A stretch of 64,000 bases of DNA, from the sequence record NC_106597.1; one strand, 5' to 3'. Below, in pieces: positions 28,457 to 32,479 of this stretch (within the stretch, counting starts at the first letter, position 1; the number at the start of each line of letters is the position of its first letter). Origin of the DNA: Escherichia phage BB1. A program made the position numbers and the translations under genes. Under the pieces are notes generated by a model. That model made no database searches. It saw nothing but the letters and a program-made list of their open reading frames with translations, and had not been told where the DNA came from.

Positions 28457-30229
28457 TTAGGTAAGGCGTTGAACTGTTACTCGTAGTCTCGGTAAGAAAA
28501 CTGCAGAACCTAAACTAACGTGTAGTATAACACCTAATTCTGCATTACCATTACCAAGATTTTTTATTGTATATATAAAACTGTTTCTACTAAAAGCTCC
28601 GCTATCTGGAGTATATTTATAAGCAGAAGTAGTATGGAAAGGCACTAATTTTCCAGGAGGAAGAACTAAAATTTGGTGAAATATAGCATCCCCTCCCGTA
28701 TAACTTTGTGATTTTCTTCCTTGCACCTGAAAAACACTACCATTCCACGTATTTACTGGTAACCCAGCAACATTAAGGTTACCCGATAATATTTCACTAG
28801 TTAGTATAACAGTAGAGTTATTATTTGGTAGGCCTAGTCCAACTGTTGCTAGTGATTTATAAACATTACCAGTGCCCGGATAGGTCGGAGTAATATCATT
28901 ACCAATATAGGCACTAGCCACATTACCGGATAATAGGCGTAAAGGTATTGATGAAGGTCCCCAGACAACACCATTCTCATTACCAATAGTATTATTATTA
29001 GAGTTTACATACCAGGTCTTACTAGCAGAGAACTTATAAATACTAAGTTGTGCTCTTGTACCACTATAGTTGACTGGTGCCCATATAGATCCTTTGTTAG
29101 AGCATACAAATTCACATCTTCCAGTAGTATCCCCAAACACCCCACCATGCGCAGCGTTTACTCCAATATACTCCATATCAGCACGAGAACTTAGATTCCC
29201 TAGAGCATTCTGATTAATAAACTTCCAACCAGTAGTAGATAACTTAACTCCCTTAATAGTAAAGTTGGACGGAGAAATTATTATGTCAGAACCTGTAAAG
29301 GGATTGCTAGAAACAGACATACTACCATTAGAATACCTTAGGTTCAGCACATACCATATAACTTTTGTAGGGGTTACTCCATAACCATCTTGAACTATTT
29401 TTGTATTAGCTGATTGACTTACTAACTTAGTAGTAGAACCTCTACAAACATATCTATACCCACCATCACTAAAGTGCTGTACTATATTGCTAGGGATTGT
29501 TTGTTTGTATCCAGCATACCCCCTAATATTAGAATTACATACATAAAACCAGTTGTGCCCACGTTTACCAGCCCCCATTGGAGCCATCCAGTTAGGATCC
29601 CAATAGTACGTATCACCTGAAGATATAGGAACAGAAGTACTTCCTATAGGATACCCTAGTTGTTTGAAAGTTTCAGCTACAGTAGCACCTACAGGTGCAC
29701 CACCACCTGGTCTTACAACACCATGATAAGTACTATGTAGTACAGTACCGCCAGTACCACTTCTAGCTATAGATTCTTCATGCCCTAGAGAACTATTATA
29801 GGAATAAGTACCTGAAGCTAGACTATTACCAAAAGCAAATCCAGCAGTTTGACTTAAGCTAGCAAATGATCTAAAAGGATCGGCCTGAGGATCGGCCTGA
29901 GTAGAAGAAAGAAACTGCCCAACTTGAGATTGAGTACCATTCAAAAAACCACGATGGGTACCATTAACTTCTATAGCTGTTAGTATAACTCTACCAGGAT
30001 CATTACTCTTTAAGTTAGCTATTGCAGAAGGCATCTGGCATACATAGAAACCATTCCCAGCACTACTTAATGCGCTCTCATAAGTGCTTTCTACTAATAC
30101 GAAGGGCATATCAGAATGAAAAATAGTATTAGTACTAGGGTTTTTATGAGCATTAATATCTCCACCACTAGCAGTATTTAGTGATAATACAGTTTTACCA
30201 TCACTATATTTTCCAGCGAAAAAACCCAT
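28457..30229 (-). CDS. receptor-binding tail protein (pb5/Oad-like)
   Basis: 590 aa Gly/Ser/Thr/Asn-rich protein divergent from the llp-like gene, as oad and llp are arranged in T5. Confidence 0.6.
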
Positions 30230-30254
30230 ATAATCTCCTATTATAAAAATGTAT

Positions 30255-30283
30255 TTGCTTTCATCCCTCTATTTTGCTATAAT
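30255..30283 (+). promoter_or_regulatory. strong sigma70 promoter of T5 PN25 type driving the lipoprotein gene
   Basis: TTGCTT - 17 bp - TATAAT followed by AGATTCATAAATT; AT-rich upstream region. Confidence 0.7.
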
Positions 30284-30314
30284 AGATTCATAAATTAGAA
30301 ATGGAGAGATAAAT

Positions 30315-30581
30315 ATGAAAAAGTTTGTGATTGCACTAGTTGCCGCAGTTATGTTATCTGGTTGTGCACCTGCTCCCAAACCATTTTGTACAGGATTTGT
30401 AAAATCTTTTGGTGGTGTGGGAGAAGAACATTACGGTCTCAAGGTTCAAAAAGTTCGTATTAAGGGAGATCGCTTTCCAGTAGTACAGCTCCGTACTAAG
30501 TTTGGATGGTGGGATCTCAGTCAGTTTGACCTTAAATATGGTGATTGTAAATTTAAACTAGAACAATCTAATTACCTGTAA
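30315..30581 (+). CDS. llp: lytic-conversion lipoprotein (Llp-like receptor-blocking lipoprotein)
   Basis: 88 aa; signal peptide with lipobox LSGC; divergent from the receptor-binding protein gene. Confidence 0.7.
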   Translation: MKKFVIALVAAVMLSGCAPAPKPFCTGFVKSFGGVGEEHYGLKVQKVRIKGDRFPVVQLRTKFGWWDLSQFDLKYGDCKFKLEQSNYL

Positions 30582-30628
30582 TTAGTATAAAACAAAAAGA
30601 CATCCAAGTAAACTAAATTTTTTATTTC

Positions 30629-30967
30629 TTGGATGGTGTACTGGCAGAAAACACTATGCAAGAAAATGAGAAGCCCTTCCAGGAACCCATGCCACTTGAG
30701 ATGAATCCTAGGGCAAAAGCAGTTCATGATGCAATTAATGAAATCATTCAGGATGTCATACAAGACACTATGGAAGATGTAATGGGAACATCATTTCTTC
30801 TAGAAGAATCTGGATTTGATGAAATGATGGATCTCGTAGGAACAGTTATAATGGTTCGTGCAATTGCTAGAATATTCCAAATACCACATTTACGGGAGCA
30901 TGAAAGACATGTCAAACGGCAACAAAAGAAAGAACAGGCGCGGAGAAGTGTACGAAGCGTGGATTAA
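30629..30967 (+). CDS. hypothetical acidic protein
   Basis: 112-aa ORF; 3' part overlaps next ORF in another frame, true extent uncertain. Confidence 0.3.
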   Translation: MDGVLAENTMQENEKPFQEPMPLEMNPRAKAVHDAINEIIQDVIQDTMEDVMGTSFLLEESGFDEMMDLVGTVIMVRAIARIFQIPHLREHERHVKRQQKKEQARRSVRSVD

Positions 30968-31043
30968 CATTTACGGATTTGGCTTTGTATTATTCCTAAT
31001 CTTCGTAGGTTTTTGGTTAGCAGCTATGGCGGGGTGGATCTAA
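30900..31043 (+). CDS. small membrane protein
   Basis: ORF 30858..31043 with likely internal start; C-terminal hydrophobic helix; stop overlaps next start (TAATGG). Confidence 0.3.
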   Translation: MKDMSNGNKRKNRRGEVYEAWINIYGFGFVLFLIFVGFWLAAMAGWI

Positions 31044-31150
31044 TGGAATGGGTAATTATTGCACTACTGGGGATTGTGATTATTGGGCAGTGTATTTTAG
31101 ATAATCACTTAGCTAGAATTGAAACCTTACTATCGGAGAAACGTAAATGA
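31043..31150 (+). CDS. small membrane protein (35 aa)
   Basis: MEWVIIALLGIVIIGQ...; below the ORF-track threshold; ATGA overlap with next gene. Confidence 0.3.
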   Translation: MEWVIIALLGIVIIGQCILDNHLARIETLLSEKRK

Positions 31151-31341
31151 TGGAAGTGGCAGTTACACTAATAGTAATATTAGTCTGGGTAATCCTCATT
31201 GCCTCTCGTATCGTGTATATTCGCCTAAAAACTCTAGAAGCCCAGGTAAAACAACAACAAGTTGCGCTAGAAAAGCTAGTACTACTGCAACGGTGTGATA
31301 GCACCCGTATTCTGCAAATTGAGAAGGAATTAGATGTTTAG
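31147..31341 (+). CDS. small membrane protein (64 aa)
   Basis: N-terminal TM helix followed by a coiled-coil-like segment. Confidence 0.4.
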   Translation: MMEVAVTLIVILVWVILIASRIVYIRLKTLEAQVKQQQVALEKLVLLQRCDSTRILQIEKELDV

Positions 31342-31579
31342 TATTGTAATTGCTTTTATTATCGGGATACTCGCTGGAGTTTTCGGGACGACTGCGGCAA
31401 TCAATAAGCATCGGGAATATATTGCGGGAGTGACGCGGGAGATTGCGGAAAGGGAGCGGAAGTTTGACGAGAAACGTGCGGAGTTTGAGCGGAAGTGGTC
31501 GGATGGATCTCGGGCGTCGCGGAAGAGATTCCGTGAGTTCAGACCAGAACACAGGTTTGATGACCCTTCTATGCGCTAA
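31334..31579 (+). CDS. small membrane protein (81 aa)
   Basis: N-terminal TM helix then Arg/Glu-rich tail; start overlaps upstream gene. Confidence 0.4.
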   Translation: MFSIVIAFIIGILAGVFGTTAAINKHREYIAGVTREIAERERKFDEKRAEFERKWSDGSRASRKRFREFRPEHRFDDPSMR

Positions 31580-31744
31580 TTTGGAAATCTCGAAATTTCA
31601 TAAGATTACACATGGAGGTGTGCCCAGTGGGTCGGGGGAGAATACTTAGTCTGCTAACCGCCACCCCCCGTTACTATTAGCAGGGTAATTGTTTCATCCT
31701 GCAACCATTTTAATCGCAGGATGAAATTATTTCAACTTTAATTA

Positions 31745-32479
31745 TTACGCAACTTTTAATTTCTCAATATATTGTTGCGGGCTGCAACTATATTCTGCGC
31801 GTTCTTCCTCGGTCATACCTTCCCAGCATAGTTTTAAACGGTCAGCTAGGAATTGATAATCATTATCATCGTCGAGCGATTCATCAATAAAGGTTTCACC
31901 TATTAATGTTACACCTATTGATAGAATATCATTAACGGCTTGCGCGTCCAGCGTTTTAAATCCGTATGATGCTGCCGCCGATAGCACACCTTTATGATCA
32001 TCAATCATTGTAAAATCAGCGTTCGGATATAACTGTTTAAATAATTCAAAATAATAAGATTTATATACTGCGTCTTTGCTGTGGTATATTTCGCTAACTT
32101 TATCAGCTTTAAAATATTTATGCAGTGTGTCGCGGGAAAATACGCGGATATTGCTATTTCCTCGACCTCGCAAGCCTTGTTTGCGCAAGAAATAATAGTC
32201 CGACTTACTCATCAATCGAGCGGTGCAAATAATGTTTAAAGTATTTGCATCATTCATGCACTGGCGCATATATTCAACCAATGGCAATAAAGTATCTTGC
32301 ATTATTAAATGATGTTTGCAGGCTTCATTTTTATATTTATTTAAATCTAAATTGCCCTCATTATCAAAGCAAGGCGCTACACGATGGAAAGAATTAACGA
32401 TAGTGCCGTCTAAATCCCAAATCATGACGCGGGAAATATGCGGGAAATTACGGAAAGAATTAATAATAGATTTATTCAT
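31745..32479 (-). CDS. dmp: HAD-family 5'-deoxyribonucleotidase (Dmp-like)
   Basis: 244 aa; HAD motif I WDLDGTIV near N-terminus; length matches T5 dmp. Confidence 0.6.
   Translation of the reverse strand: MNKSIINSFRNFPHISRVMIWDLDGTIVNSFHRVAPCFDNEGNLDLNKYKNEACKHHLIMQDTLLPLVEYMRQCMNDANTLNIICTARLMSKSDYYFLRKQGLRGRGNSNIRVFSRDTLHKYFKADKVSEIYHSKDAVYKSYYFELFKQLYPNADFTMIDDHKGVLSAAASYGFKTLDAQAVNDILSIGVTLIGETFIDESLDDDNDYQFLADRLKLCWEGMTEEERAEYSCSPQQYIEKLKVA

Follow-up and report, generated by a model that had tools for sequence, protein, structure and literature searches.

The cluster of very small ORFs downstream of the lipoprotein gene llp in Escherichia phage BB1 raises two questions: whether such short frames are genuine genes, and what a set of small membrane proteins could do beside a gene of superinfection exclusion. 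The window (64,000 nt of sequence record NC_106597.1) derives from a T5-like phage (Tequintavirus) that is 97.9% identical to Salmonella phage FGS009. Four consecutive plus-strand ORFs with overlapping stop/start junctions had been reported in the initial annotation, and this is borne out: ORF1 (30900–31043; 47 aa), ORF2 (31043–31150; 35 aa), ORF3 (31147–31341; 64 aa), and ORF4 (31334–31579; 81 aa) are joined at TAATG (1-nt overlap), ATGA (4 nt), and ATGTTTAG (8 nt), and each has a Shine-Dalgarno-like motif 5–10 nt from its start. All four give full-length PHROG matches (E 3.8e-26 to 5.3e-47) that cover essentially the whole profile, namely, in order, phrog_8596 (E 3.6e-29), phrog_6369 (E 3.8e-26), phrog_5851 (E 2.1e-30), and phrog_6447 (“membrane protein”; E 5.3e-47).

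The four small ORFs are likely orthologues of T5.159, T5.160, T5.161, and T5.162, a judgement that covers their identity, architecture, and accessory status jointly. Synteny and lengths agree with the T5 reference (NC_005859), in which T5.159–T5.162 have the same order, strand, and position, and three of the four lengths (35, 64, and 81 aa) are equal, at 77–94% identity. The two loci differ in that ORF1 is 44 or 47 aa here versus 42 aa in T5 (a two-codon GN insertion), that an upstream 103-aa gene is intact here and only a remnant in T5, and that the adjacent llp is of an 88-aa type here, whereas that of T5 encodes the 77-aa FhuA-blocking Llp. The location 3′ of llp, on the same strand and with no further unique gene ahead of the right terminal repeat, is kept in the annotations of T5, MM-1, Bas31, Bas33, and FGS009. 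These ORFs are already known as annotated genes of T5 and its relatives, and are not a discovery; the T5 reference record carries for each of T5.159–T5.162 the note “contains single transmembrane domain.” The expectation that gene callers would miss the smallest member fails for the 35-aa gene in T5 (T5.160), FGS009, MM-1, Bas31, and Bas33, where it is annotated, and is only partly correct: the records of SPC35, 1-23, and phiR2-01 leave out at least one of the small genes. Among the papers searched, none has a main-text mention of T5.159–T5.162, and the HIDEN-SEQ sample contained no T5-like phage.

Evidence for coding comes from selection and distribution. Pairwise dN/dS (Nei-Gojobori) in the proposed frames is 0.08, 0.11, 0.33, and 0.19 for ORF1–4 (for ORF4, over the first 66 codons), compared with 0.4–2.6 when the same DNA is read in either of the other frames; purifying selection is confined to the proposed frames. 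All four reading frames are retained across 25 related loci, and relatives also keep the start codons, the Shine-Dalgarno motifs, and the overlaps between stop and start; loss of the frames in related phages, the outcome that the initial annotation regarded as fatal to its proposal, is clearly not what is seen. Each gene occurs in 192 to 447 phage records (ORF1, 439; ORF2, 259; ORF3, 192; ORF4, 447), all of them T5-like. A word-indexed protein search with the ORF4, ORF3, and upstream 103-aa proteins had only T5-like phage proteins among the matches listed, and when the ORF4 alignment was run as a profile, exhaustively, against 1.84 billion representatives, the five matches all belonged to the same family, which appears to be confined to T5-like phages. 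On the evidence of sequence, the four ORFs are real protein-coding genes, and the case for genuine, translationally coupled small-membrane-protein genes beside llp is supported. A 118-aa minus-strand ORF (31196–31552) was rejected as antisense to the selected frames.

The plus-strand unit begins with llp (30315–30581), which encodes an 88-aa lipoprotein with the lipobox LSGC; its PHROG match is phrog_1119 (“Cor superinfection exclusion protein”; E 1.8e-26), its Pfam match is LPAM_1, and annotations in relatives call it a receptor-blocking or superinfection exclusion protein. The four ORFs had been placed between llp and the pre-early block. On the llp side this needs correction, as a conserved 103-aa ORF, here designated up103 (30656–30967, plus strand), intervenes. 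The last 59 nt of this fifth gene also cover the start of ORF1, in a different frame; the gene matches phrog_16810 over its full length (E 9.6e-54), and encodes a product with an acidic helical hairpin and a basic C-terminal helix. A tblastn search located it in 307 phage records, with coverage of at least 80% in 211 of these, and its 28 protein clusters are all from T5-like phages; residues 20–80 are strongly conserved in the alignment (A3). The AF2 model is small and helical (pLDDT 70), with no PDB fold match at E ≤ 0.001. Most Tequintavirus genomes, T5 included, retain only decayed remnants of up103.

On the other side, the block corresponds to the terminal repeat, which starts at 31621 by homology with the T5 left end, and the adjacency is explained by the repeat beginning 41 nt after ORF4. 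To place the repeat boundary, we compared the locus with the T5 left end and with the right terminal repeats annotated in T5 and MM-1; the interval 31621–31745 extends from the repeat start (equivalent to T5 genome position 1) to the stop codon of a convergent dmp gene. Between ORF4 and dmp lies a terminator-like hairpin on the plus strand (31691–31727), with a 12-bp stem, a 13-nt loop, and a U-rich tract. The RNA fold of 31680–31745 (−18.4 kcal/mol; z −4.3) is matched in stability by none of 200 shuffles, and the hairpin is probably the end of the plus-strand transcript; a simple hairpin scan missed it, which we attribute to a loop longer than the 8-nt limit of that scan. A hairpin after llp is no more stable than shuffled sequence (z −1.3), and an Rfam search (E ≤ 1) yielded a single snoRNA match, at the level of chance. 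A consensus promoter scan was at background (7 sites versus 4.5 expected). Because no convincing conserved sigma-70 promoter was found in the aligned llp–ORF1 interval, co-transcription of llp and ORF1 is plausible. Together, llp, up103, and ORF1–4 would constitute the final plus-strand unit ahead of the right terminal repeat.

The initial annotation held that each product begins with a hydrophobic helix. This applies to ORF2–4, in which the best 19-residue Kyte-Doolittle window spans residues 1–19 (scores 2.33–2.77), but not to ORF1, whose N-terminus is basic and whose helix is C-terminal (residues 29–47; score 2.35). Many relatives lack the first ATG of ORF1 (30900), whereas the second ATG (30909; MSNGNK...) is found in all 16 of the aligned sequences and is therefore the likely start; it yields a 44-aa product (30909–31043), and GGAG lies 10 nt upstream. 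The ORF1 product is predicted to be tail-anchored, with its basic N-terminus (KRKNRR) in the cytoplasm and, at the C-terminal end, a transmembrane (TM) helix, the distal part of which (FVGFWLAAMAGW) is near-invariant in the sampled relatives. Each of the four proteins has one Kyte-Doolittle window above 2.3 (scores 2.3–2.8), one predicted TM helix, and neither lipobox nor signal peptide. K/R residues cluster on the proposed cytoplasmic side of each TM helix; judged solely by the positive-inside rule, the soluble part of every protein would be cytoplasmic. For the products of ORF2, ORF3, and ORF4 this would put the N-terminus outside, and the helix on the inner side would be amphipathic, coiled-coil, or charged.

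In the ORF2 product, the N-terminal TM helix is followed by a short amphipathic C-terminal helix (ARIETLL). In that of ORF3, the corresponding segment is a heptad-repeat, coiled-coil-like C-terminal helix with the conserved end RILQIExELDV and a hydrophobic residue at 9 of 12 a/d positions in one heptad register. The ORF4 product comprises an N-terminal glycine-rich TM helix (G11xxxG15xxG18xxxA22), a long charged helix, and a basic tail. AF2 models ORF4 as one helix (residues 2–69; pLDDT 73.5), and a fold search is therefore meaningless.

Architectures with one, two, or three copies of an ORF2/ORF3-type gene occur among relatives, and ORF3 is absent from “type C” genomes. Significant similarity links ORF2 to two variants from other phages, o2b (51 aa; shuffle z 11) and o2c (34 aa; shuffle z 18), and phiR2-01 has a single 64-aa gene with an ORF2-like start (MEWV) and an ORF3-like end (ERELDV). 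Direct ORF2–ORF3 similarity is not significant (z 1.8), and o2b–ORF3 similarity is marginal (z 4.3) and inflated by TM composition. ORF2 and ORF3 appear to behave as one copy-number-variable family of one to three copies, a link that depends mainly on the chimeric-looking phiR2-01 gene. ORF1, one to three copies of the ORF2/ORF3-type gene, and ORF4 would then be the conserved core across Markadamsvirinae.

Information on expression and dispensability is available for orthologues. In Bas33, 20 min after infection, TPM values in two replicates were 219/127 for llp, 162/137 for o2b, 462/408 for o3, and 22/13 for o4, with 1–2 reads only for the ORF1 and ORF2 orthologues (o1 and o2) and low expression of o4 (PMC13250531 Dataset S1); the low read numbers may be a counting artefact of very short adjacent genes or may reflect real processing. 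When the first-step DNA alone was expressed, 0–1 reads were obtained for all six genes (PMC13250531 Dataset S1), the locus being transcribed only after second-step DNA transfer (PMC13250531). Because of this near-absence of reads with first-step-transfer DNA only, a role in injection of the phage’s own DNA is unlikely. In the T5 CRISPRi-ART knock-down screen, T5.159–162 were all classed “Not Fit,” meaning knock-down without measurable impairment of infection, and so was llp (PMC11879866). The endolysin gene lys was also “Not Fit” in the same screen (PMC11879866); the screen is thus insensitive, and supports dispensability weakly by itself. Natural variants lack ORF3, have it truncated, or have altered ORF4 tails. 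It is likely, jointly with the identity and architecture given above, that the four proteins are accessory.

For the function of ORF1–4 we tentatively favor, at low confidence, superinfection exclusion at the inner membrane. The genes are tightly coupled in translation and the helix-packing motifs are near-invariant, which suggests that the products may form a single small hetero-oligomeric complex in the inner membrane; we infer complex formation from the gene coupling. Envelope conversion of the infected cell, which Llp brings about at the outer membrane, would be the role of this complex at the inner membrane: most likely, it would keep superinfecting T5-like phages from delivering their DNA or damaging the membrane there, whichever outer-membrane receptor they use. 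Rather doubtful is the fuller version of this proposal, in which a dedicated inner-membrane complex would provide a second, receptor-independent layer of exclusion or envelope protection that complements the receptor-specific Llp. This layer would act by stopping insertion of the tape-measure protein (pb2-type) or DNA transit by rival T5-like phages of any receptor, and changes in ORF2/ORF3 copy number would tune its specificity. The four proteins show no similarity to characterised exclusion, holin, antiholin, or spanin families in PHROGs, Pfam, NCBIfam, and PADLOC (E up to 1–10), nor was homology to any other characterised protein detected; in Pfam, NCBIfam, and PADLOC, all matches stayed below threshold and at the level of architecture (LapA_dom, FtsL, PspB). 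Because Llp by itself blocks T5 infection when expressed alone (PMC9586334), the four proteins are not Llp helpers.

A role in counter-defence or host takeover is possible, though we consider it unlikely: the proteins would bind and neutralise a host inner-membrane protein (for example, a membrane-bound abortive-infection effector, a protease, or a transporter), and would matter only in hosts with that target. Accessory genes that are “Not Fit” in a screen on a laboratory E. coli host would be expected on this reading, as would the differences in copy number and gene content among close relatives, which are common for arms-race genes. The PHROGs category of ORF4 is “moron, auxiliary metabolic gene and host takeover,” and the near-invariant TM motifs in the sampled relatives could reflect binding to a conserved host helix. 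However, no PADLOC model or known anti-defence family was matched, and three of the four genes are strongly conserved (dN/dS 0.08–0.19) rather than diversified.

Small antiholins regulate the T4 holin, and small single-pass membrane proteins are typical of lysis regulators. The ORF1–4 products could accordingly be antiholin-like or holin-modulating partners of the T5 holin that set the timing of lysis, a reading we consider improbable. The T5 holin (T5.041) is itself a single-TM protein, and the annotation of the spanin genes T5.044/045 notes a similarity to T4 PseT.2. Nevertheless, PHROG and Pfam searches at E up to 1–10 revealed no similarity to holins, antiholins, or spanins, and the soluble parts of ORF1–4 are predicted to be cytoplasmic, whereas RI-type antiholins and spanins act in the periplasm. 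The lysis reading is further weakened since the T5 lysis genes are annotated elsewhere, as T5.040 (endolysin), T5.041 (holin), and T5.044/045 (spanins) (PMC4342426). A spanin, holin, or antiholin identity was rejected on the same two grounds, the missing family match and the location of the lysis genes.

That ORF2 and ORF3 encode virion or tail-assembly proteins is highly improbable. The sole support is a subset of GenBank/UniRef records, in which the ORF3 orthologue is labelled “tail assembly protein” and the ORF2 orthologue “tail fiber protein”; the T5 reference and PHROGs-based annotations call both hypothetical, and no structural PHROG or Pfam match was found for the small ORFs. The proteins are 35 and 64 aa long, each with a membrane helix, and their genes lie on the strand opposite to the neighboring receptor-binding tail protein and terminase genes and downstream of llp, a gene reported as early-expressed. 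Both orthologues are “Not Fit” in the T5 screen, and ORF3 is absent from many plaque-forming relatives; the database labels look wrong. The notion that ORF1–4 are chance ORFs or functionless decaying remnants, to which their extreme shortness, a shortened ORF3 and an internal deletion in ORF4 at individual related loci (L017 and L025, respectively), and the very low Bas33 read counts for two orthologues might be thought to point, has a negligible probability and, as far as sequence evidence reaches, is already refuted by the selection analysis, with frame-specific purifying selection in all four ORFs, conserved starts, Shine-Dalgarno motifs, and overlaps, occurrence in hundreds of genomes, and the contrast with the neighboring up103, which is truly decayed in many genomes (frameshifts and a 150-bp deletion).

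As a discovery the locus has small weight, the genes being annotated in T5, represented in PHROG families, and covered by a published knock-down screen. It is now described more cleanly, with respect to the start of ORF1, the fifth overlapping gene, the three-family core, and the copy-number-variable middle member. The five tiny, conserved, lineage-restricted genes are a tractable target beside the best-understood exclusion gene of T5. Should the inner-membrane exclusion or counter-defence reading be true, the cluster would represent a new small-protein mechanism in a classic model phage, with relevance to the design of cocktails of T5-like therapeutic phages.

Among known systems, the bacterial bitopic proteins PspB, FtsL, and the LapA domain resemble the small proteins in architecture: a single TM helix leads into a segment that is helical or a zipper. 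Membership is not supported, because the scores are far below curated cut-offs: 11.5 versus 51.7 bits for PspB, 13–14 versus 42–50 bits for FtsL, and 19.9 versus 28 bits for LapA_dom (PF06305), where the match is between the TM region of ORF4 and the domain.

A further comparison is with the Llp/Cor lipoproteins. The llp gene neighbors ORF1–4 on the same strand, its transcript in Bas33 at 20 min is of the same order as those of the small genes, and llp likewise scored “Not Fit” in the T5 screen. An exported lipoprotein, Llp binds FhuA from the periplasmic side (PMC9586334), whereas the four proteins are predicted to face the cytoplasm. Moreover, ORF1–4 do not co-vary with the receptor-binding/llp module: the cluster follows both the 77-aa FhuA-type llp (T5) and the 88-aa type found here, and is in this respect independent of the module.

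T4 Imm, T4 Sp, and HK97 gp15 are small inner-membrane superinfection-exclusion proteins, dispensable in the laboratory and expressed before lysis. Like ORF1–4, they are small phage-encoded membrane proteins, and the likeness is one of analogy, with no sequence similarity to ORF1–4 at permissive thresholds (PHROGs, Pfam). Each of these systems consists of a single protein, whereas ORF1–4 comprise three protein families encoded in a coupled operon.

Four consecutive plus-strand genes for small membrane proteins lie between the lytic-conversion lipoprotein gene (llp) and the convergent gene dmp: ORF1 (30900-31043; 47 aa counted from the first ATG), ORF2 (31043-31150; 35 aa), ORF3 (31147-31341; 64 aa), and ORF4 (31334-31579; 81 aa). 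The ORF listing and the sequence both bear out this arrangement, which had been proposed in the initial annotation together with overlapping stop/start junctions; these are TAATG (1 nt), ATGA (4 nt), and ATGTTTAG (8 nt). Shine-Dalgarno-like motifs occur 5-10 nt upstream of the four starts (GGAG, GGTG, GGAG, and AAGGA, respectively). For ORF1, many relatives have AAG, ACG, or ATA in place of the first ATG (30900), whereas the second (30909), with GGAG 10 nt ahead of it, is kept in 16/16 aligned sequences; thus, the ORF1 product is likely to comprise 44 aa (MSNGNK...).

Coding status was assessed against 21 related viral contigs and annotated records, with ORFs placed by tblastn and ORF maps. 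In the proposed frames, dN/dS is 0.08 for ORF1 (13 unique sequences), 0.11 for ORF2 (18), 0.33 for ORF3 (17), and 0.19 for the first 66 codons of ORF4 (24), vs. 0.4-2.6 in both alternative frames of the same DNA. By this measure of selection, all four are genuine coding genes under purifying selection, and the observation made in the initial annotation was largely correct. A 118-aa minus-strand ORF (31196-31552), antisense to ORF3 and ORF4, is most likely spurious, the selection pattern favoring the plus-strand frames.

The region 30250-31750 has matches in 303 phage records, T5-like by name in every case, of which the top match is Salmonella phage vB_Si_CECAV_FGS009 (Demerecviridae, Tequintavirus; 97.9% identity). 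The llp/Cor-type lipoprotein gene (30315-30581, plus strand) is preceded by a receptor-binding tail protein gene (28457-30229, minus strand). Llp is reportedly expressed early, going by the title of a 1994 report by Decker et al. Expressed by itself, it blocks T5 infection (PMC9586334). Upstream of llp, an extended -10 promoter-like element (TGcTATAAT, 30275-30283, plus strand) with TTGCTT 17 nt further 5' was recognized by eye (site 30255-30283); it is absent from the consensus promoter scan because the -35 hexamer matches at only 3/6 positions. The llp gene upstream of the cluster is of a 77-aa FhuA-type in T5 and of an 88-aa type in the window, with the same cluster behind both, and similarity between genomes picks up again directly 3' of llp; the cluster therefore belongs to the genome backbone rather than to the swappable receptor-binding/llp module. 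Further small-gene runs with one or two annotated transmembrane domains occur at 12.5-26.5 kb in T5 (NC_005859; T5.020/021, T5.027-031, and T5.048/049/052), so that runs of this kind characterize the T5 early region in general rather than the llp locus in particular.

At the 3' end, homology to the T5 left end places the start of the terminal repeat at 31621, 41 nt past the ORF4 stop; in T5, the right terminal repeat lies 42 nt past the four genes. In the window, the repeat directly follows the final unique genes; the sequence must stem from an assembly in which a terminal repeat of ~10 kb is collapsed, and it is for this reason that pre-early (first-step-transfer) genes adjoin the run. The llp-ORF4 unit probably terminates within the repeat, at a stable hairpin (31691-31727; -18.4 kcal/mol, z -4.3) that leads into a U-rich tract and then to dmp (31745-32479, minus strand).

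The run had been described as adjoining llp, which does lie 5' on the same strand, but a fifth gene, up103 (30656-30967, plus strand; 103 aa), sits between llp and ORF1. Its product aligns with phrog_16810 over the whole length (E 9.6e-54), and the final 59 nt of the gene also encode the start of ORF1, in a different frame. Intact up103 proteins show good conservation (alignment A3) and are found at a coverage of at least 80% in 211 phage records, mostly of Salmonella phages; in most Tequintavirus genomes, including T5, the gene has decayed (frameshifted remnants, 150-bp deletion). No Shine-Dalgarno motif was found upstream of its ATG. The AF2 model is of a small helical protein (pLDDT 70), for which a PDB comparison gave no fold match. 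A single record, that of phage H8, names the homologue 'receptor blocking protein'.

The T5 counterparts of ORF1-ORF4 are T5.159 (42 aa), T5.160 (35 aa), T5.161 (64 aa), and T5.162 (81 aa), each noted in the T5 record as "contains single transmembrane domain". Full-length matches were obtained to PHROGs 8596, 6369, 5851 (all of unknown function), and 6447 (named only "membrane protein"), respectively (E 3.8e-26 to 5.3e-47). The expectation that gene callers would miss one of the genes holds for SPC35, 1-23, and phiR2-01, where at least one is unannotated, but not for T5, FGS009, MM-1, Bas31, and Bas33, where all four are annotated. Some records and UniRef entries (e.g., ESCO30, phiLLS, HMD-7) label the 64-aa ORF3 or 35-aa ORF2 orthologues "tail assembly protein" or "tail fiber protein"; we found no support for these labels, which look like propagated mis-annotation. 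Among 50,697 phage records searched by tblastn, 439 matched ORF1, 259 ORF2, 192 ORF3, and 447 ORF4, T5-like throughout except for one chance-level ORF4 match. In a search of 5.8 billion proteins, the 82 clusters retrieved for ORF4 (identity of at least 66%) and the 120 matches listed for ORF3 all belonged to T5-like relatives; when the ORF4 alignment was searched exhaustively as an HMM against 1.84 billion representatives, five proteins were retrieved, all of the same family. Judged by these searches, the four genes are restricted to the Markadamsvirinae lineage.

Gene content varies among relatives. The window and T5 have ORF1-ORF2-ORF3-ORF4 (type A); MM-1, Bas31, Bas33, and others carry an additional 51-aa ORF2 paralogue 3' of ORF1 (type B); five compared loci and Epseptimavirus 1-23 have a 34-aa ORF2 variant and lack ORF3 (type C); and phiR2-01 has a single 64-aa gene with an ORF2-like start (MEWV...) and an ORF3-like end (...ERELDV). 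Shuffle tests clearly relate the ORF2 variants to one another (z 11-18). Hence, the architectures share a conserved core of ORF1, between one and three genes of the ORF2/3 type, and ORF4. Past approximately residue 66, the ORF4 tail takes three forms, two of which are seen with an insertion directly 3' (a homing-endonuclease gene or a different ORF). At compared loci L016, L018, L020, L022-L025, and L029, an insertion just 3' of ORF4 (an HNH-type homing-endonuclease gene; a different ORF in L018 and L023) coincides with a swap of its last ~15 residues. ORF4 of L025 has a 16-residue internal deletion, and ORF3 is truncated in L017.

Published RNA-seq of Bas33 (HildyBeyeler), in which the cluster is bas33_0187-0191, gives TPM values 20 min after infection (replicates 1/2) of 219/127 for llp, 462/408 for ORF3, 0.5/1.2 for ORF2, 162/137 for its paralogue, 0.8/1.0 for ORF1, and 22/13 for ORF4 (PMC13250531 Dataset S1). 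With daunorubicin, which largely limits expression to first-step-transfer (pre-early) genes, all six genes have 0-1 reads (PMC13250531); it follows that the locus is transcribed, but not as part of the pre-early set. Counts alternate between adjacent, overlapping, co-oriented genes (ORF3, ORF2, paralogue, ORF1), which may be an artefact of read counting on genes 108-129 nt long, or may reflect RNA processing or internal promoters. In a transcriptome-wide CRISPRi-ART screen of T5, T5.159-T5.162 (scores -3.86, -3.55, -4.11, and -3.60; p 0.24-0.91) and llp were all "Not Fit", which suggests that the four small genes are dispensable; the screen is of limited sensitivity, since the endolysin gene was also "Not Fit" (PMC11879866 source data). 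The four genes are annotated and already screened.

Hydrophobicity analysis identifies one strong 19-residue window per protein (scores 2.33-2.77). The initial annotation had each protein begin with a hydrophobic helix, which is so for ORF2-ORF4 (residues 1-19) but not for ORF1, where the helix is C-terminal, behind a basic N-terminal segment (KRKNRR). ORF1 is predicted to be tail-anchored, and the positive-inside rule predicts cytoplasmic soluble segments for all four proteins. The distal part of the ORF1 helix (FVGFWLAAMAGW) is near-invariant in sampled relatives, including phiR2-01; ORF3 has a heptad register with hydrophobic residues at 9/12 a/d positions; and ORF4, modeled by AF2 as one helix over residues 2-69, has invariant G11, G15, G18, and A22. 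Together with translational coupling, these features suggest helix-helix assembly of the four proteins into one complex.

An accessory role, in envelope modification or host interaction, fits the evidence, given that the genes are "Not Fit" in a low-sensitivity screen, lineage-restricted, and variable in copy number, yet under purifying selection and co-oriented with llp. Receptor-independent superinfection exclusion at the inner membrane is the mechanism we favor, albeit with low confidence. The main rival, neutralization of a host inner-membrane defense or another host protein, we rate only slightly lower. A lysis role is unlikely: the T5 endolysin, holin, and spanins are encoded elsewhere (PMC4342426), the four proteins match no lysis family in PHROGs or Pfam, and topology prediction puts their soluble parts on the cytoplasmic side. 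A structural role has no support. Under superinfection exclusion, the four proteins would form a small inner-membrane complex in the infected cell, which would keep superinfecting T5-like phages from entering or doing damage, whatever their outer-membrane receptor. Such a complex would resemble Imm and Sp of phage T4 in role, but not in sequence.
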